Assembly (NCBI GenBank): GCA_019058365.1
Contig: JAHPZE010000001.1
Span: 384,001-448,000, forward strand
Length of the DNA stretch: 64,000 nucleotides
Source of the DNA: Promethearchaeota archaeon
Lineage (GTDB): Archaea > Asgardarchaeota > Lokiarchaeia > Sigyniarchaeales > SOKP01
Reading direction: 5' to 3'
Shown: positions 23,994 through 52,429 of the stretch, in pieces
How positions within the stretch are numbered: position 1 is the stretch's first letter
Layout of the letters: each line of letters starts with the position of its first letter
The notes under the pieces: generated by a model
Databases searched by the model: none
Told to the model about the DNA's origin: nothing
What the model saw: only the letters and a program-made list of their open reading frames with translations
Program-made: the position numbers and the translations under genes

Positions 23994-24236
23994 ATGAGAC
24001 CCCCTATTTGTAGAATATGCGATAAGAATCTAGTAGATAAGGATGATGGAGGTTTGATATATTTTAGAAAACGCCCTTCTGATAAAGAATGGGAAAAGAG
24101 GATGGAAGGAATTGGAGGTGTAGGACATCCACCCTATGCAGAATGGTTCTGTAAAAAGCATTATGATAGAGCAAAGGAGCTAAAACATTTACCTATCAAT
24201 GAAGCATTAAAAATTTTAAGATCTGAGGGGACCTAG
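23994..24236 (+). CDS. Small hypothetical Zn-finger-like protein
   Basis: CRIC...GHPPYAEWFCKKH; 80 aa; slight 3' overlap with the convergent mvhD. Confidence 0.55.
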   Translation: MRPPICRICDKNLVDKDDGGLIYFRKRPSDKEWEKRMEGIGGVGHPPYAEWFCKKHYDRAKELKHLPINEALKILRSEGT

Positions 24237-24650
24237 TTCCTTAATCTGGTGAGTAAATTCTGTAATTACCTCAGCAAACCGTTTTCCTTCAGATGCGCTA
24301 ACCCATTCTAACCGTACCCGCTTAGGATCCACTCCCAATTGTTTAATTAATATAGAATGTAACCTTTCGAATCTTTCTTGAGTGTATTCATTTCCGGTAA
24401 TATAATGACAATCACCTATATGACATCCACTTATAAGGACACCATCAGCACCATTCTTCAATGCCTTTAATACAAATGCAGGGTCTACTCTTCCAGAGCA
24501 CATTACCCTTATAATTCTAATATTTGGGGGATATTGAAACCGAGAAACTCCTGCTAGATCTGCTCCTGCATAGCTACACCAATTGCAACAAAAGACTAAA
24601 ATGTGGGGTTCAAATTCTTCTTTTTCTGCTTTTTTCTTCGACTTTGACAT
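24216..24650 (-). CDS. mvhD: MvhD [2Fe-2S] subunit (Cys form)
   Basis: FCCNWCSYAGAD, MCSGRVD, GCHIGDCHY, WVSASEG. ATG at 24650 preferred because GGTGAT lies upstream as RBS. Confidence 0.93.
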   Translation of the reverse strand: MSKSKKKAEKEEFEPHILVFCCNWCSYAGADLAGVSRFQYPPNIRIIRVMCSGRVDPAFVLKALKNGADGVLISGCHIGDCHYITGNEYTQERFERLHSILIKQLGVDPKRVRLEWVSASEGKRFAEVITEFTHQIKELGPLRS

Positions 24651-43156: not shown

Positions 43157-43588
43157 TTAAATAACTTGCAGTGGTCCTAGTTTTTTAATTTCATTAGTAA
43201 ATTCAGTGATGACTTCAGCAAATCGCTTCCCTTCAGATGCACTTACCCATTCAAGTCTAAATCTTTTTTCAAGATTGAATATTTTTAATATTTCCTTAAA
43301 ATGTTCAAATCTATCCCTAGCAAACTCATTTCCTTTTAAGTAATGACAGTCACCGATATGACATCCTGTCACAATGACTCCATCAATACCATCTTTAAAA
43401 GCCTCCAAAATAAAAGCGGGATCTACTCTACCAGAGCACATCACTCTTACTATCCGAATAGTAGCAGGGTACTGAAAACGAGATACGCCAGCTAAATCTG
43501 CCCCAGCATAACTACACCAATTACAACAAAAACATAATATATTTGGATGGAAATCTTTTTTATTTACTTTCTTTTTTGACTTAGACAT
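43157..43588 (-). CDS. mvhD: MvhD [2Fe-2S] subunit (Cys form)
   Basis: FCCNWCSYAGAD, MCSGRVD, GCHIGDCHY, WVSASEG. Confidence 0.93.
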   Translation of the reverse strand: MSKSKKKVNKKDFHPNILCFCCNWCSYAGADLAGVSRFQYPATIRIVRVMCSGRVDPAFILEAFKDGIDGVIVTGCHIGDCHYLKGNEFARDRFEHFKEILKIFNLEKRFRLEWVSASEGKRFAEVITEFTNEIKKLGPLQVI

Positions 43589-43606
43589 AAGTTAATACCT
43601 CATAAT

Positions 43607-46600
43607 TTAAGTTTGGACAAGAAGTGCAGAAATCATAGCGTGAATTTGCTCAAAACCAAAATGTTTAATAACTATTGTTGAATTAGGACATTGTGCGCCA
43701 CATGTACCACATCCCTTACAAAGCGCAGGATTTATATGAGATTTTTTATTAGTCATTGTAAAATCTTCGAACGTTCTTTCTTTTTCTATTAATTCTATAG
43801 CATTAAATTGACAGACTTCTACACAGCTTCCACAGCCAATGCAATTTTCTTCTATTACAACCGCTACAAGTCCAGATGTTACAAGCTTTTCAGCACTTAA
43901 AATTTTAACTGCTTGAGCAGCAGCTCCATTGGATTGTGCAATTGATTCTCGAAGATCTTTAGGTGAATGTGCACTTCCACATAAATATATACCATCTGTA
44001 GCAAAATCAATTGGTCTCAATTTAACATGTGCTTCCAAAAAGAATTTGTCCTCATTAAGTGGCACTTTTAACATTTTTGCTAGCTCTTCATTTTCTTTTA
44101 TAGGTGCTACGAGACCAGTACTTAGTACGACTAAATCAGGATTTATTTCAAGGGCTCCTAAATCTGGATTATTGATTTTAATTTTTAATCTTTTATTTTT
44201 AATAGTTAATTCTGGAGGTTTAGATTCATCAAATCTAAGAAATATAACCTTTTTATCTCGTGCTAAGTTATAATATTTTTCTTTAAAACCATATGTTCGG
44301 ATATCACGATATAGAATTACTATTTCTAAATTAGGATTGATTTCTTTTGCTTTTAGCGCATTTTTAATAGCTTCTGAACAACAGATTCTACTACAATAAG
44401 GGTGATCTTCATTTCTAGATCCAACGCATTGAATCATAGCTATTGATTTCAATCCTTTTATTTTATCCGTAGTAAAAAGATCTTTTTCAAATTCGGTTTG
44501 GGATATAATTCTTTGATCTTTCCCGAAACCATATTCTTTTGGTTGATATTCTTTTGCCCCTGTGGCTACAATAATTATTCCATGGTCTAGATCAACACTT
44601 TTACTATTATTTCCATAACTTATGTTTGTGGAAAAATTCCCTATATATCCTGAAATTGAATTAATTTGAGCATTTTTAAATACGTGAATGAATTGATTAT
44701 TTTCAACTTTTTTAATTAGGTTTCCAAGATACTCCTGAATATCATCATTTTCAAGGGTTTGATAAATATTTTTGGCAAATCCACCTAGAGAATCTTCCTT
44801 TTCAATTAAAAAAACTTCATAACCTTGAGAAGCCAGATTTAATGCTGCTGACATTCCAGATACACCCCCTCCTATGATGAGACCCTTACTTATTACAGTA
44901 ATTTCTTGTTCCTGCAACGGGATTAATTGGCTAGCCTTTGCTATTGACATACGCAATAAATCTTTTGATTTTGCTGTAGCTTTTTCAGGTTCATGCATAT
45001 GAACCCATGAACATTGATCTCGAATATTTACCATTTCAAAAAGATATTTATTCAAACCAGCTTCCCTAATTGTTGCTTGAAATAATGGTTCATGTGTTCT
45101 TGGAGTACATGAGGCAACAATAACTCTATTAAGTTGATTTTTTTCAATTTTTTCTTTAATATTTGTTTGGGTATCTGCTGAACAAGTATACAAATTATGT
45201 TCAGCATAAACAACATTGGGCAATGTTTTAACGTATTCAACTACATTAGGAACATCAACAACTCCACCAATATTTATCCCGCAATGGCATATAAATACCC
45301 CTATTCGCGGGTGTTGACCACTTACATCTAATTCTTCGGGAAGTTCTTTCTTAGAGACTAATTTATTTCTTGCTTCTGATAGAAGAACATTTACATATCC
45401 AGCAGCAGCACTAGCTTCAATAACGGTTTCTGGAATATCTTTTGGTGTTGCGAAAGACCCACAAACATAAATTCCAGGTCTTGAAGTCTCTACTGGGTTA
45501 AAGGTTCCAGTTTTACAAAACCCATATTCATTTAACTGGATATTTAATTTCTGTGCTAATTCTTTTGCTTTTTGATTAGGTTGCATTCCAACGGAAAGGA
45601 CGACTAGATTAAAAATTTCTTTAACAATTTTTCCATTTCCTGTTTCATAATAAACCTTTAAATCTTTAGAGTCCGGAATTTCTTTAATAGAAGAAATTCT
45701 GCGTCTGATATATCTTATTCCATACTCATTCTTCGCTCGTTCAATATATTTATCAAAATCTTTACCATATGCTCTGATATCCATTGTAAAAATTGTTGGT
45801 TCTATAATATTCATGTGCTCTTTTGCTATTACTGCTTCTTTTGTTGTATACATGCAACACACAGAAGAGCAGTAATCAATTCTATGCTTTCTATCTCTTG
45901 AACCTATACAATGTAAAAAAGCAATTTTTTTGGGGATAATCCCATCAGAAGGGCGAATTATTAAACCAGAATGTGGTCCACTAGCACTGAGTATACGTTC
46001 AAATTCAATACTAGTAATCACATTTAAATGCTTACCGTAACCCAATTCCGTTAAAGGAGTAGGATCATATTCATCAAATCCAATTGCTAATACTACAGCT
46101 CCTACATTAAGGTTAATTAAACTATCTTGAAGTTCATAATTTATAGCTTTTGCTTTACATATTCCTTTACAAATACCACAACCTATACATTTTTGTTTAT
46201 TAATTGAGAAAACTAATGGAACTGCTTGAGGAAATTTCACAGAAATTGCTGCTTTGTTAGAAAGCTTTTCATTAAAAAAATCAATAGCCTCTATAGGACA
46301 TTGTTGAGCACACAAACCGCACCCTGTACATTTATTCTGATCCAAACGAAGGGTTGTTTGAGTTAAATGAACATTAAAATTTCCTGGAACACCTTCAATT
46401 TTTTCAATTGAGGAATTAATTAAAATATCTATATTTTCATGTCGACCAGTTTGTACTAATTTTGGGGCAAGAATACATATTGCACAGTCATTAGTTGGAA
46501 ATGTTTTATCCAATTGAGACATAGTTCCTCCAATACTGGTTGTAGATTCTGCTAGATATACTTTATAGCCTGAATCTGCTAAATCTATAGAAGTTTGAAT

Positions 46601-46648
46601 ACCAGCAATTCCACCACCAATAACTAGAACAGCTCCGACTTTCTCCAT
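43607..46648 (-). CDS. hdrA: Large HdrA-like flavoprotein (two FAD-binding motifs)
   Basis: GGGIAG and GGGVSG, DKTFPTNDCAIC, CSSVCC, CHCG, ASCTPRTHE, CSRICC, ferredoxin motifs. Confidence 0.93.
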   Translation of the reverse strand: MEKVGAVLVIGGGIAGIQTSIDLADSGYKVYLAESTTSIGGTMSQLDKTFPTNDCAICILAPKLVQTGRHENIDILINSSIEKIEGVPGNFNVHLTQTTLRLDQNKCTGCGLCAQQCPIEAIDFFNEKLSNKAAISVKFPQAVPLVFSINKQKCIGCGICKGICKAKAINYELQDSLINLNVGAVVLAIGFDEYDPTPLTELGYGKHLNVITSIEFERILSASGPHSGLIIRPSDGIIPKKIAFLHCIGSRDRKHRIDYCSSVCCMYTTKEAVIAKEHMNIIEPTIFTMDIRAYGKDFDKYIERAKNEYGIRYIRRRISSIKEIPDSKDLKVYYETGNGKIVKEIFNLVVLSVGMQPNQKAKELAQKLNIQLNEYGFCKTGTFNPVETSRPGIYVCGSFATPKDIPETVIEASAAAGYVNVLLSEARNKLVSKKELPEELDVSGQHPRIGVFICHCGINIGGVVDVPNVVEYVKTLPNVVYAEHNLYTCSADTQTNIKEKIEKNQLNRVIVASCTPRTHEPLFQATIREAGLNKYLFEMVNIRDQCSWVHMHEPEKATAKSKDLLRMSIAKASQLIPLQEQEITVISKGLIIGGGVSGMSAALNLASQGYEVFLIEKEDSLGGFAKNIYQTLENDDIQEYLGNLIKKVENNQFIHVFKNAQINSISGYIGNFSTNISYGNNSKSVDLDHGIIIVATGAKEYQPKEYGFGKDQRIISQTEFEKDLFTTDKIKGLKSIAMIQCVGSRNEDHPYCSRICCSEAIKNALKAKEINPNLEIVILYRDIRTYGFKEKYYNLARDKKVIFLRFDESKPPELTIKNKRLKIKINNPDLGALEINPDLVVLSTGLVAPIKENEELAKMLKVPLNEDKFFLEAHVKLRPIDFATDGIYLCGSAHSPKDLRESIAQSNGAAAQAVKILSAEKLVTSGLVAVVIEENCIGCGSCVEVCQFNAIELIEKERTFEDFTMTNKKSHINPALCKGCGTCGAQCPNSTIVIKHFGFEQIHAMISALLVQT

Positions 46649-47925
46649 TACTTCTCCTCAATATTATAATTAGGTTCTATTAATGTGATCATATTCACTA
46701 AAAATTCTGAAAAATCTATAATTTCTATAGAAGAGAAATCATCATAGTCTTTTTTTAGACAGTTCAAATGCATTCGACATTTTGGACAAGCTGTAATCAT
46801 TTTAGTTCCAACAGCTTTAGCTTCTAACAAACGCTTATATCGTAAAGCTTTTGATCGTTCATTACAATTCATCCAAGAATTTACTCCACAACAATAAGAA
46901 TTTTCTTTATTATGCGCCATTTCTTTAAAATCATAACCAATAGCCTTCAAATATTTGAAGATTTCTCGGACATTCTCAACTATTTTATTATCCTTAGGTA
47001 AAAATCTACTTAATCTACAAGGATCATGAAAAGTAAATTGAATTAGTTCATTAGATTCATTGGGGTTTTTAAATTGAACTTTTCCTTGCTTCCATTTATC
47101 ATAGATATATTCAATTATATGTTTAACTTCAAATTTTTCATTAAAATCTTCAAATAATTTTGGATAATCAATTTTAAATGTTCTATAACATTCAGCACAT
47201 GCTGTTACTATATGTGTAATTCCTGCTTTATCAAACAGTTTAATATTTTTTTTCGCTAATTCAATAAAGCTTTCGAATTTTGCTTGGCCCCAATATAAAT
47301 CATGACCACAGCATACCTCATCTTTCAGAATAACTACTGGATCATTTTCTAATTGACAAATAATCTTAAGTGTGCTTTCTGCTATAGATATTGAATCTTT
47401 GAATTCATAGTTAAAGAAAGGTAAACATCCTACATAATATAAAATATTTCCTCTATCTGAAATTTTACACCCTTTTGGAATCCAATCTAAAGGTCTCTCA
47501 ATTTTAAAATTATCTTGACTCATCATTTCTGACATCAAAGGATAAATACCTTTATGAGCAATAGAACGATCAGGATTTTGAATATCTTTTAACCGCATTT
47601 TATATCTAGCAATTCTGACAATGTCAGCGAAATTTATATCTTTAGGACAATGTTGTAGGCAACTATTACACATTAAACAATCCCATAACACCCTACTATT
47701 GATTATCTCATCTTCAAAACCTTCTAATATTGTTTGAATAATTCTACTAGGTGTAAATTTTTGTACTTTACTTACTTGGCATACACCCGAGCAACGGGCA
47801 CATTGATAACATTTTTTTAGTAAGTTAGATAAATCTGGCTCGAATATTTTTTTCAAATATTCATAATTGTCATCAGAATCTGGTTCTAATTTATCGGACT
47901 TTTTACTTTCAGTTATGGTAGTCAC
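46648..47925 (-). CDS. HdrD/HdrC-B-like Fe-S oxidoreductase
   Basis: Close paralogue of 27767-29047; two [4Fe-4S] motifs and two CCG domains. Confidence 0.9.
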   Translation of the reverse strand: MTTITESKKSDKLEPDSDDNYEYLKKIFEPDLSNLLKKCYQCARCSGVCQVSKVQKFTPSRIIQTILEGFEDEIINSRVLWDCLMCNSCLQHCPKDINFADIVRIARYKMRLKDIQNPDRSIAHKGIYPLMSEMMSQDNFKIERPLDWIPKGCKISDRGNILYYVGCLPFFNYEFKDSISIAESTLKIICQLENDPVVILKDEVCCGHDLYWGQAKFESFIELAKKNIKLFDKAGITHIVTACAECYRTFKIDYPKLFEDFNEKFEVKHIIEYIYDKWKQGKVQFKNPNESNELIQFTFHDPCRLSRFLPKDNKIVENVREIFKYLKAIGYDFKEMAHNKENSYCCGVNSWMNCNERSKALRYKRLLEAKAVGTKMITACPKCRMHLNCLKKDYDDFSSIEIIDFSEFLVNMITLIEPNYNIEEK

Positions 47926-49429
47926 TCCTCTCTTTTTCTTCTTTTAGTTCAATTGGTTTACAATTTTTTCTCTTAGTACCAGCAATTCTTTCTAATAAGG
48001 ATTGCCCCGGTTTAACATCCTCTAAGCTTTTTGATTCTATTAATCCTGCATTAATTGCCTCTTTATAAAGGGTTTCACCCTTTTTATTTCGTGTAATCAC
48101 TGTAGACCACCCACTAGGGGACCCTATTGATCCTACAGAAATATCAGCATAATCGGAGGTCAAGTCTTCGCAATAGTGACAATTATGGCGAGCATAGGAT
48201 TTGACTTCATTTAAGGGTACGTTTAAATCTTCACCCGAATCTAAATAAATGATAAATTTCCCACCACTTATATCCATTTTCGTAACTTTATTAAAATCTG
48301 ATTGGAACTTTTCATTGATTAAGTTAAGAACACCCTCATAAGGAAAAGATTCCATACAAAAAAGCCCTATTCGATATTTAATGTTTGTAAAAAATGGTAG
48401 TCCACTCGGAAATAAAGTACCTTTTTCTAAAGCATTCATCATACAGGGAACGCCTACAACTGCAATGTTTTCATACTTTTTTGTTTCATCTATAATACTT
48501 AAAGTCGAGGCATTAGCGTATTTAGTGCCACTTGTTTTGTAAAGATCTTTAATGTCTTCTATTATCACTGGCTCTGGTTTCCATAACTCCTTCGAATGTT
48601 GTACTGCTACAATCACATCAACTAATTTATTTTTAAGTAAGTATTCAAGCAAAGAGGTAACAATCCCACCATCTTGTCGTACTTTTTTAATATCATTCTT
48701 AGTGGTGCTCGCAGAATAGGTATTTATATAACCATTAATTTGTTCTGAGAACTTTAAGGATTTATCAAGCTTATTTATATTTTTGCCCGCTTGTTCGATT
48801 GAAAATGATCTCGGGCAAACTGAATAACATAAACCGCATTTTATGCAAATTTTATCATCTATCTCCAAAGTATCTGCTGTGGCTGTGATGGCATTCACGG
48901 GACAAATTGATGAACACCAACCACATTGACAGCATACTTCAGAATCAAACACAATAGAAACTGGTTCAAAAAAATGTTCAATAAAATCATCGGGGAGATC
49001 TTTAACTTGATAGCGATAAAAATATTCTTTTTCTTCGACTTCTTTTTCTTCTCCCTTTATTTTCTTGATAACAGTCTTAGTTTTTATATCGATAAGTTCT
49101 TCAATATATCCCTGTTCTTTAAGATAAATTACATCACGAATTACATTTTCTACAGGAAAATCTTTTACAATTTTTGCAATTTCCTCTAAAAATAATGGTT
49201 CTTTACCTTTTAATAATTCTAACACTAATTTACGCTCTGTTTCTGCATCAATCAGGGCATCTAGTATTTCATAAAATTCTTTTTCAGAATACTTTCCAGT
49301 TTTTAAAATTTCATCTTTTGCTTCGAAAAAAGCGCGAATTTGAAAATTTTCTACGGCCTTATAGGTAGCATCCATTAAATTTTTTGGAGATATTCCATTG
49401 AAATTTACGTTATTTGAAATTTGAACCAT
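47909..49429 (-). CDS. FrhB/FpoF-like F420-binding subunit with N-terminal winged-helix-like and ferredoxin domains
   Basis: CCQCGWCSSICP, CIKCGLCYSVCP; QDGGIVTSLL, SGTKY, VGVPC, IGLFCME, CHYCED, ADISVG, GWSTVITR. Confidence 0.88.
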   Translation of the reverse strand: MVQISNNVNFNGISPKNLMDATYKAVENFQIRAFFEAKDEILKTGKYSEKEFYEILDALIDAETERKLVLELLKGKEPLFLEEIAKIVKDFPVENVIRDVIYLKEQGYIEELIDIKTKTVIKKIKGEEKEVEEKEYFYRYQVKDLPDDFIEHFFEPVSIVFDSEVCCQCGWCSSICPVNAITATADTLEIDDKICIKCGLCYSVCPRSFSIEQAGKNINKLDKSLKFSEQINGYINTYSASTTKNDIKKVRQDGGIVTSLLEYLLKNKLVDVIVAVQHSKELWKPEPVIIEDIKDLYKTSGTKYANASTLSIIDETKKYENIAVVGVPCMMNALEKGTLFPSGLPFFTNIKYRIGLFCMESFPYEGVLNLINEKFQSDFNKVTKMDISGGKFIIYLDSGEDLNVPLNEVKSYARHNCHYCEDLTSDYADISVGSIGSPSGWSTVITRNKKGETLYKEAINAGLIESKSLEDVKPGQSLLERIAGTKRKNCKPIELKEEKERSDYHN

Positions 49430-49494
49430 ATTTCTATCCTTTTGGTTTACAATTTATTAAAAAATTTTAAATTTTAATTGAATACTATTTAAAA

Positions 49495-49562
49495 ACCCCT
49501 TCCCTTGCAAGGTGAGTTCTCTTATAACTAATATTTTTTTATAAGAGTCATTCTACAGGGGT
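49495..49562 (-). ncRNA. Candidate SECIS-like stem-loop overlapping the mvhD(Sec) stop codon
   Basis: mRNA: ACCCCU-GUAGA-AUGA-CUCUUAUAA-[AAAAAUAUUAG]-UUAUAAGAG-AACUCA-CCUUGCAAGG-GA-AGGGGU-UUUU. Perfect 9-bp upper helix right after AUGA, A-rich apical loop, 6-bp lower helix. The 3' GA of the core is out of canonical register. Confidence 0.55.
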
Positions 49563-50009
49563 AGTTATAACTTGTTTTGTTTCAATTTTTGACTCTTCTT
49601 CTACTAAGTTAAGTGGATTTGGTCCAGCTTTGCTTACTTTTTTATAAGCGTCCTCGACAGATTCGACAAATTTCCCAGCATCTCCTCCACTTACCCAATA
49701 CATGTTTATTCTCTGATTTCCGAAACCTCTTGATTCTAAGATTCTGTTTGCTAATTCTACATGTCTTTCGGCTGTGAAATTACCATTTTTAAATTGACAT
49801 TCATTGGGTCGTCAGCCTACAATCATGACACCATCAGCTCCCGAGCGAATACTGTAGAGAATATGCTTAACATCAACTCTACCAGTACATTTTACTTTGA
49901 TTATTTTTACTGCAGGTGTATACTTCAATCGAGAAACTCCCGCTAAATCAGCAGCACTATAACCTCATTTTAAACATGCAAAAATAATCATTTTATACCT
50001 ATTTTTCAT
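49548..50009 (-). CDS. mvhD: MvhD/VhuD selenoprotein, 153 aa, Sec at codons 15 and 66
   Basis: Absent from the track. MKNRYKMIIFACLK-U-GYSAADLAGVSRLKY...VKCTGRVD...GADGVMIVG-U-RPNECQF...YWVSGGDAGKF. TGA at 49965-49967 and 49812-49814 align to CNWC and GCH cysteines; GGAGGTG RBS. Confidence 0.92.
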
Positions 50010-50015
50010 ACCTGT

Positions 50016-51959
50016 TTAAACACCTCCGAGAAGACCGTCAATTTCAGCAAATAATTGATGATCTCGATAATATCTGATATCAATTGCTTGAGTAGGACAA
50101 CATGTAGCACAAATACCGCATCCGTCACAATTTGTCTCATCAATAAATGCACCGATATCCTTCTCAATTCTAATGGCGTTTTTGGGACACTCTTTTTCGC
50201 ATCGTCCACATGAAATACAGAATTCGCTGTTCACTTCAGCAGTAATTAGTTCTATATCGATTTGTCCTGGTGCTGTTAACTCAGCTGCTTTGCTAGCCGC
50301 TGCCCTCGCTTGAGAAACGGAATAAGAAATATTTTTTGGTCCTTGAGCAAATCCAGCTATAAAAATTCCTTTTGATTTCGTTTCTTGCGGCATGAGTCCG
50401 AAATGGGATTCTGTGAGGAACCCGTATGTATTAGTATCAAGGTTTAGTACTTGTACAATCTGATTAGTACCTTTTGAAGGGAGTGCTGCTGAGGATAATA
50501 CGACTAAATCTGCATCAATTATTACGATCTTATCTGTTAGTGTTGAATAGACGCGAACCTTCACATTTTTAGTTTCAGGATCTTCAGAGATTTCCCCTAC
50601 TTTTCCGCGAATCATTTTAATTCCTACATCTTTAGCTCGTTCATAGTACTCTTCAAATCCTTTTTCGGGAGTTCTTATATCAATATAACAGATTGTAATA
50701 TTCGCATCGGGAAATTCTTCGAGCAATAACCTTCCGTTTTTTAGAGCGAGCATGCAACACACACCACTACAATAAGTTCGTTCATTTTCTCGACTTCCTA
50801 CGCATTGTATAAATACAATTTCTTTTAACTTCTTATTATCAGAAATTCGATGAACATGACCTTCAAGTGGACCATTTGGAGCAAGTATTCGTTCTAACTG
50901 AACTTGAGTTATGACATTCTCAAATTCTCCGTATCCATATTCACCAAAAGGTTCGTAGATATCCCATCCAGTTGCTATAATGATTGTACCAACTTCAATA
51001 TCAACTTCTGTAGGCACTTGACTGAAATCAATGGCATCTAATTCACAGGCATCTACACAGGAAAAACACTCAATACACGCATCCCTGTCGATATCATATA
51101 GAAACGGTACTGCTTGACCAAATGGAATATCAATTGCTTTTCGCGCTCCCAAATGTTCATCAAAATAATTGCTCACATATAAAGGACAAACCTCACTGCA
51201 TGCACCACATCCATTACAGTCGTCCGTCGTATATCGCGGTTTCCTTTCAATAGTTACTTTATAGTTCCCGACATATCCTTCTACTTTTTTTACTTCACTA
51301 TAGGTGACTAATTCAATATTCTCATTTCTATTAACTTCTAACATTTTGGGACCACAAATTCATATAGCACAATCGTCTGTAGGAAAGGTTCTGTCTAACT
51401 GAGACATTCTCCCTCCTATTGTAGTTTTTTGATCAACTAAATATACCTTGATGCCTTGATTCGCAAGATCGAGAGCCGCATTCATACCACAAATCCCAGC
51501 TCCAATAACTAATGAGGCTTTTGTAACTGGAACTGTCTTAATTGGCACTGGCTCTAATCGTTTTACTCTTTCAATTCCACTTTTCACTAAGATTTTTGCC
51601 TTCTCTGTAGCTTCTTCTTTACTATCTGTGCACCATGAACACTGTTCACGAACATTTACCATTTGAAAGTAGTATGGATTTAGGGCAGTTTTAGCTATTG
51701 TCCCCCGATAAATAACCTCATGTGTACGTGGGGTTCAAGCAGATGCTACAATTCGGTCTAGATTTTTTTCTTTAATATCTTTAATAATTTCATTTTGAGC
51801 ATTATCGGTGCATAGAAAAGCATTTTTTTTAGCAATTACGACATCATCAAAAGTCTTACTTACGTATTCTACAAGCTCATCGCAATCTACTTTAGTCCTA
51901 ATATTTACTCCTCATTGACAAGCATAGTATCCAATCCGATGATTTTCATTATTATTCAT
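50016..51959 (-). CDS. hdrA: HdrA selenoprotein, 647 aa, Sec at codons 16, 75 and 200
   Basis: One frame joins the two track ORFs and an untracked 5' part: RIGYYACQ-U-GVNI (51912-51914), VASA-U-TPRTHE (51735-51737), FPTDDCAI-U-ICGPKM (51360-51362). Canonical HdrA length and domain order. Confidence 0.92.
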
Positions 51960-52429
51960 CTCTTTTTACACATCCACCTCTAGCTTTTACATAATTGTAT
52001 ATTCATAAATTTCTTAGATTTTTATTGGATGTTTTTTAAGTTCCAATATTGATCTTTTTGTAACGATCGATATTAAATATTTTTTTTAATTGTATTTACA
52101 TTTTCAATATTTTTAATAGTTTTTGTTACCATATATAAGCAAATATTTGTAAAGCGGTCACAACATCAAAATATTTTTGACCAGATTGAAGATTTTTAAC
52201 TATTTTTTTTTGAAGATAATCATAGAAAGAGGAATTTATGATCGATCTTAAACATTTTTATTTAAGAACTTCTTAATCAAATTGGATTCTATTTTGCATT
52301 GATTCTAATCTTTATAAGATTTGACATTTTTATCAAAAAGACCAAGAATACTAAAATTGATGTTAATTCAATAAAGCTGATAAAAAGAGAAAAAGTTAAT
52401 TCTCCTCATAAAAATTATAGGACTCAATT

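Follow-up and report, generated by a model that had tools for sequence, protein, structure and literature searches.

Evidence for a two-selenocysteine VhuD-type mvhD gene that completes a five-UGA hdrA-mvhD pair in a Lokiarchaeial genome

We focus here on two neighbouring genes in a stretch of 64,000 nucleotides from a Promethearchaeota archaeon of the Lokiarchaeia (contig JAHPZE010000001.1, positions 384,001 to 448,000), the whole of which we call the window. The genes lie on the minus strand, and the plus-strand frame at the same coordinates is full of stops. The pair is laid out as follows:

50016-51959, minus strand: hdrA, with ATG at 51959, 647 codons and a TAA stop at 50018-50016 (from translation)
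51914-51912, 51737-51735 and 51362-51360, minus strand: in-frame TGA codons 16, 75 and 200 of hdrA, predicted to encode selenocysteine (Sec) (from translation)
50021-50027, minus strand: GGAGGTG, a Shine-Dalgarno-like sequence within the 3' end of hdrA, 11 nt before the mvhD ATG (read from the sequence)
50010-50015, minus strand: spacer of 6 nt separating the hdrA stop from the mvhD start, too short for a SECIS
49548-50009, minus strand: mvhD, a VhuD-type FlpD gene, with ATG at 50009, 153 sense codons and a terminal TGA at 49550-49548
49967-49965 and 49814-49812, minus strand: in-frame TGA codons 15 and 66 of mvhD, predicted to encode Sec (from translation)
49495-49562, minus strand: lokiSECIS-type element (from its fold and the published shape)

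A plain list of open reading frames contains mvhD only as a 51-aa C-terminal fragment (49548-49703). The preliminary description of this DNA had nevertheless placed a 153-codon mvhD with two TGAs 6 nt after the hdrA stop and had counted a five-UGA bicistron, and translation of the minus strand reproduces both this layout and the count of five in-frame TGAs, three in hdrA and two in mvhD. The GGAGGTG sequence may serve mvhD in ribosome binding. Furthermore, the 6-nt spacing, together with the single SECIS, suggests that hdrA and mvhD are co-transcribed. We consider mvhD to be supported as a genuine two-Sec gene of the VhuD/MvhD type that completes the five-UGA pair, since its TGAs and its reading frame are conserved, a SECIS follows it and the genome encodes the Sec machinery.

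The recoding hairpin begins inside the end of mvhD and is composed of the following parts:

49562-49557 paired with 49500-49495, minus strand: lower helix, ACCCCU/AGGGGU
49551-49548, minus strand: AUGA core, formed from the terminal GAA-UGA and overlapping the mvhD stop
49547-49539 paired with 49527-49519, minus strand: upper helix, a perfect 9 bp
49538-49528, minus strand: apical loop AAAAAUAUUAG, 11 nt, starting with AAAAA and ending with AG
49518-49517, minus strand: 3' core, AA
49512-49503, minus strand: small hairpin within the element
49495-49491, minus strand: U-run after the element
49539-49541, minus strand: back-up stop TAA, in frame and three codons past the terminal TGA (UGA CUC UUA UAA), within the upper helix

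In the published lokiSECIS (PMC4989117), an AUGA is combined with a stem of 9 bp, and the loop of 11 nt opens with five A residues and closes with a G that usually has an A before it. The hairpin described here has the AUGA, the 9-bp stem and an 11-nt loop that runs from A5 to G, and it is the single SECIS after the vhuD-type gene. Its 3' core is AA in this copy versus GA in 13 of 15 orthologues, so that the GA half of the kink-turn core is absent; this does not exclude it from the lokiSECIS class, since AUGA_AA is a variant already described for hdrA/frhD of Lokiarchaeia (PMC11227280). The structure is also borne out by covariation. In a set of 20 elements (16 orthologous copies and four from this genome), 92% of cells are paired versus 40-66% when the partner column is slid, and changes on both sides are found in 11 of 18 pairs, which none of 500 shuffles equalled; one divergent paralogue was misaligned by MAFFT and enters this count as noise. 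The stability of the fold taken alone is unremarkable (z = -1.2), and a search of 49300-52200 with Rfam, whose library is without a Loki-type model, matched no SECIS family. Of the 15 orthologues that were read to the gene end, 14 keep the back-up stop in the form E-U-[FLI]-L-stop.

A strict form of the SECIS pattern gives only four matches in the whole genome, and three of these directly follow two-TGA FlpD genes, that is, Sec-mvhD genes. The further two-Sec mvhD genes of this genome, each with an hdrA before it and a lokiSECIS-like hairpin after it, are:

C21:106945-107313, minus strand: further two-Sec mvhD
C9:30451-30819, plus strand: further two-Sec mvhD
C9:90773-91138, plus strand: further two-Sec mvhD

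The hdrA genes before these three carry two TGAs each, at positions of about 16 and 200, and stop with TAA or TAG. All four Sec-mvhD genes of the genome thus stand behind an hdrA that has two or three TGAs and a TAA or TAG stop, and ahead of a SECIS hairpin.

Downstream of the Sec pair, the same strand carries other genes of heterodisulfide reductase type:

47909-49429, minus strand: FrhB-like protein with a ferredoxin domain, downstream of the Sec pair
46648-47925, minus strand: HdrD-like CCG protein, downstream of the Sec pair
43607-46648, minus strand: HdrA-like protein of 1013 aa, downstream of the Sec pair
43175-43540, minus strand: Cys-type mvhD, after the gene for the 1013-aa HdrA-like protein

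The U-run after the SECIS and a gap of 119 nt that is rich in AT suggest that the Sec pair forms a transcript of its own. No hydrogenase gene adjoins the pair, the nearest match to a NiFe large subunit (C16:339722-340915) being about 92 kb away. The gene order in 43175-49429 recalls input modules of the F420 or formate type (Elp/Fdh-Hdr) more than Mvh.

The family assignment of both products is clear. Residues 8-129 of the mvhD product match Pfam FlpD (PF02662) end to end, covering profile positions 2-123 of 123 with 142 bits against a cut-off of 22.3 (E=1.2e-41). Its closest solved relative is VhuD of Methanococcus maripaludis (PDB 9sfi_K, E=8.5e-39), the deposited sequence of which has X at both positions that align with U15 and U66; the earlier statement that methanococcal VhuD is a two-Sec protein is borne out in this way. 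The hdrA product scores 768 bits with NCBIfam HdrA2 and 667 bits with PDB 9sfi_A, where X stands opposite U200 and Cys opposite U16 and U75. All five TGAs of the pair fall on columns that are Cys in paralogues, and three of them coincide with Sec of the solved M. maripaludis Hdr-Vhu complex. In alignments with paralogues and PDB proteins, the five Cys positions of the FlpD family (CxxC, C and CxxxxC) correspond to C12, U15, C41, U66 and C71, and, in agreement with the preliminary description, both Cys-type copies of the window (24231-24602 and 43175-43540) have the second Cys of CNWC where U15 stands and the Cys of GCH where U66 stands.

This correspondence bears on which of the two Sec residues would hold the iron-sulfur cluster. 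Of the five Cys positions that are conserved in the FlpD family, only four are needed to ligate a [2Fe-2S] cluster, so that the spare one has to be decided by structure. It had been proposed that U15 and U66 both ligate the cluster together with C41 and C71, half of the ligands then being selenium. This fits the invariance of both positions as Cys or Sec across the family, but we regard it as unlikely. For MvhD of M. marburgensis, PMC13580544 describes Cys16, along with Cys202 and Cys205 of HdrA, as additional cysteines that are conserved and lie between cluster and FAD. U15 stands opposite this Cys16 in the alignment to 9sw2_D, the numbering of which was checked by His68 and Asp71. C12, on the other hand, is invariant in all aligned members of the family, as is expected of a ligand. 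Since U15 is the equivalent of a Cys between cluster and FAD, the ligands are likely to be C12, C41, U66 and C71, with one selenium ligand of four rather than two, an assignment that draws on one sentence about another species (PMC13580544), on the count of five conserved Cys positions and on the alignment.

With U66 as the probable selenium ligand, U15 would sit with C197 and U200 of HdrA at the gap between cluster and flavin. Recent structures place three non-cluster Cys positions between the [2Fe-2S] cluster of MvhD and the bifurcating FAD (PMC13580544), and a 2026 structure from M. maripaludis has a Cys-Sec197 feature at this cluster-to-flavin place. MvhD U15, HdrA U200 and HdrA C197 appear to occupy these three conserved positions, and it is conceivable, although we hold the idea only tentatively, that a selenol/selenenylsulfide relay bridges the gap. 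If that were true, the enzyme would be a natural 77Se probe of the electron path from the cluster to the flavin.

The reading of the TGAs as Sec presupposes a machinery, the absence of which had been named beforehand as an observation that would speak against a Sec gene. Its components are encoded in the same genome:

C34:23408: SepSecS
C34:17562: EFSec-like factor
C37:58884: PSTK
C34:23029-23182 (the same as L027:3029-3182), plus strand: tRNA-Sec, found by BLAST with the intron-less tRNA-Sec genes of same-genus relatives

In addition, the genome has two SelD genes with one TGA apiece (Sec-SelD). The tRNA-Sec has a UCA anticodon and a G discriminator and lies about 225 nt upstream of SepSecS. 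It contains two introns, a 34-nt one in the D arm and another in the T loop (about 29 nt), and these explain why the standard finders missed it: ARAGORN, Rfam RF01852 (run on the genome and on 40 kb round the Sec genes) and three descriptor or GC-island scans did not return it. Same-genus relatives have an intron-less tRNA-Sec that scores 62-63 bits.

Two other sequences were considered as tRNA-Sec and rejected, namely a T-arm-like sequence at L027:5527-5544 and the stretch at L027:13971-14097 (C34:33971-34097), which is a type-II tRNA, probably Ser(GGA). The latter has two introns of its own, the first of which follows the anticodon while the second, about 30 nt long, interrupts the T loop, and it is absent from the ARAGORN list. 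About 400 nt upstream of the tRNA-Sec, at C34:22634-22653 (L027:2634-2653), there is furthermore a 20-nt exact copy of its 5' part (positions 4-23 of the relatives' gene), which could be the remnant of an insertion or duplication.

The machinery also bears on whether the UGAs might be read as an ordinary amino acid, either through a code change (Trp or Gly) or through near-cognate read-through (Cys or Trp). Public gene callers did use table 4 for many orthologues and so wrote W at these codons; in the protein database, more than 100 metagenomic mvhD homologues were translated with table 4. The six of these that we read out show W for codons 15 and 66 and again for the terminal TGA, which is read through (..EWFL). 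These W residues reflect a systematic error of annotation on short contigs of low GC content, and they show the same codons independently. Elsewhere in this genome, on the other hand, TGA is a normal stop: 278 of 1879 long frames terminate in it, and the next stop follows after a median of 7 codons. The five TGAs of the pair lie only on Cys/Sec columns, never on Trp or Gly, and a complete Sec machinery and a SECIS are present. Taken together, these data make a reading as an ordinary amino acid very improbable, and we retain Sec as the predicted residue.

Conservation among relatives provides the most direct view of the TGAs. In 16 of 18 same-genus genomes the best match is an mvhD orthologue of 67-86% identity that contains two TGAs. 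The resulting 16 copies, which are the window's own and 15 orthologues, all keep both TGA codons unchanged and have neither an in-frame TAA or TAG nor a frameshift, so that the conservation of the TGAs and of the frame beyond them, which the preliminary description had put forward as a check, turned out in its favour. At the third codon position, 48 of the 50 sites between the TGAs and 61 of the 64 beyond the second TGA vary, which is close to saturation, while the second codon position is mostly fixed, with 7 of 50 and 26 of 64 variable, respectively. Given this background, the invariance of both TGAs in all 16 copies is beyond chance. Synonymous codon differences outnumber non-synonymous ones by 2404 to 838 between the TGAs and by 2377 to 1631 after the second, and these patterns strongly indicate that purifying selection goes on downstream of each TGA. 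That mvhD is instead a decaying pseudogene, its TGAs being nonsense mutations in a former Cys-type gene, is an idea to which we give almost no credence, since, although the list of open reading frames has fragments only and the many intact Cys-type paralogues in the genome could make this copy dispensable, the invariant TGAs fall exactly on Cys columns, the frame shows no other interruption and the signature of strong selection after each TGA, the SECIS is conserved and Sec occurs at the same sites in solved VhuD.

For hdrA, TGAs 16, 75 and 200 are invariant in 16 of 16 orthologues, and its stop is TAA or TAG in all 16. The orthologue set recovers the five HdrA Sec positions that have been published, 16, 50, 75, 200 and 614. 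Codon 50 (window 51812-51810) encodes Cys here and is TGA in 13 of the 16 orthologues; because of this Cys, the pair has five UGAs rather than six. A TGA at position 614 occurs in one orthologue (G011). To judge from the codons, the variation at 50 and 614 is an exchange of Sec and Cys between close relatives.

Farther afield, the two sites of MvhD are found singly. Members of other families of the order (Lokiarchaeial; L045, L046 and L048) have Sec only at the first site (K-U-GY). Some homologues of Desulfobacterota and Bacillota have Sec at the second site only, as seen in the MvhD homologues of Desulfobacteraceae, Desulfosarcina and Desulfovirgula (L084, L096 and L114; GG-U-HPG). The distribution of the codons indicates that Sec arose independently at the two sites, in different lineages.

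Our current understanding of the locus is thus as follows. The hdrA gene and the VhuD-type mvhD would form a two-gene selenoprotein unit, probably on one mRNA, in which the five UGAs (HdrA 16, 75 and 200; MvhD 15 and 66) are read as Sec under the direction of one eukaryote-like SECIS. The AUGA core of this SECIS overlaps the mvhD stop, and the terminal UGA as well as the hdrA TAA would be read as stops; according to published reasoning, a UGA this close to the SECIS is not recodable, and hdrA never stops with UGA (PMC4989117). The products would be a flavin-bifurcating HdrA and its [2Fe-2S] electron-input subunit. U66 of MvhD most likely replaces one Cys ligand of the cluster (C12, C41, U66 and C71), and U15, adjacent to the C197/U200 pair of HdrA, would replace the extra conserved Cys between cluster and HdrA flavin. 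We are confident of this explanation as a whole, that is, of a two-gene Sec unit with five UGAs, one shared SECIS and U66 as a ligand; it builds on the observed gene structure, conservation, SECIS shape and covariation and Sec machinery, while Sec insertion at the UGAs and the role of each Sec are what we infer from sequence.

The preliminary description had implied that such an arrangement was new. On the contrary, it is already known, and the pair is an ordinary member of a kind published for this lineage, the Lokiarchaeia (PMC4989117, PMC11227280). In Lokiarchaeota, Mariotti et al. 2016 (PMC4989117) reported HdrA-VhuD pairs in tandem with very short spacers. Of five positions that can be Sec in HdrA, up to four are used, and VhuD has two Sec. 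They described a single lokiSECIS behind VhuD for as many as six UGAs within about 2 kb, and UGA as a stop of VhuD though never of HdrA. The description was extended to 1439 Asgard selenoproteins, the AUGA_AA variant included, by Huang et al. 2024 (PMC11227280).

We compare the pair here with three known systems. First of all, it is like the Loki HdrA-VhuD pairs in having hdrA upstream of vhuD on the same strand, a 6-nt spacer, an hdrA stop other than UGA, a multi-Sec HdrA, a two-Sec VhuD, one SECIS after vhuD and a UGA stop of vhuD. It is unlike them in having five UGAs against a maximum of six, with Cys at HdrA 50, and an AUGA_AA rather than an AUGA_GA core, which amounts to no difference in kind. 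Second, VhuD of Methanococcales (9SFI chain K, NF045873) is similar in sequence (about 47% identity), in Sec at both sites, in its HdrA partner and in the motifs C-x-x-U-G-Y and G-U-[KR]-P-N-E-C. VhuD (NF045873) is the best NCBIfam family for the mvhD product, but the score of 153.6 bits lies below its cut-off of 215. The gene here, on the other hand, lies away from vhuAGU and has FrhB-like and HdrD-like neighbours, its SECIS is eukaryote-like and not of the methanogen GAA_A type, and its HdrA has three Sec whereas methanococcal HdrA has one. Finally, Cys-type MvhD (M. thermolithotrophicus 5ODC chain D, M. marburgensis 9SW2 chain D and the window's own copies) agrees with it in fold family (FlpD), in the five Cys positions that are conserved and in serving as a [2Fe-2S] connector to HdrA, but the protein here has Sec at two of the five Cys positions and belongs to another clade.

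The last point concerns the age of the lineage. The two Cys copies of the window are 73% identical to each other, whereas the Sec MvhD is only 35-37% identical to them and is closer to VhuD of M. maripaludis (about 47% over 127 residues). In a maximum-likelihood tree of 45 FlpD domains, proteins of the K-U-G-Y type form one clade (support 93/81), comprising the four Sec paralogues, their orthologues and relatives from other families of the order. Cys-type proteins with CNWCSY fall outside this clade and are mixed with many archaea and bacteria, and the window's two Cys copies stand together in the tree (100/98). The lower identity to the Cys copies and the distinct clade support the earlier view that the Sec MvhD belongs to an old lineage separate from them. 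The tree is without Methanococcales sequences, and the link to VhuD is thus one of PDB and NCBIfam scores. Methanococcales relatives were sought among genome contigs, which returned mostly Cys-type relatives and none from Methanococcales, and a search of the phylum around one 'Methanobacteriota' MAG gave no two-TGA relatives.

The locus adds no new kind of system. It is a clean and well-conserved case of one 3' SECIS that apparently serves five UGAs in two cistrons, up to about 2.4 kb away. It is of use for annotation, as gene callers miss such genes or translate them with the wrong code, and it corrects which Sec is likely to be a cluster ligand.

The fourth genome-wide match to the SECIS pattern lies behind a gene of another kind, and the features concerned are:

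C34:290263-290712 (the same as L180:1501-1950), plus strand: gene of about 150 codons that include two consecutive in-frame TGAs, preceding the fourth SECIS match
C34:290724: lokiSECIS-shaped hairpin after this gene
C34:292061-292501: paralogue of this gene

Its predicted Sec-Sec protein has no match in Pfam or NCBIfam and is not among the Asgard selenoprotein families of PMC4989117 and PMC11227280, and we put it forward as a candidate for a new, unreported selenoprotein family. A search of 20 relatives gave homologues in 17. Each of these has two TGAs, and the match runs past them even at 24-30% identity. The motif is HAD-U-U in the genus (..HAD-U-U-ADVMK.. here) and (P)DA[GQ]C-U-U in distant relatives. 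An AlphaFold (AF2) model has a pLDDT of 89, and its Foldseek matches are weak and largely to ubiquitin-like beta-grasp folds (Urm1, bacterial Ubl, HVO_2177 and superantigen beta-grasp domains). In the model, the last strand is closely followed by the Sec-Sec pair, and proteins of the Urm1/MoaD type carry Gly-Gly just after their last strand. The upstream neighbour of the gene encodes an SBF/ACR3-type transporter.
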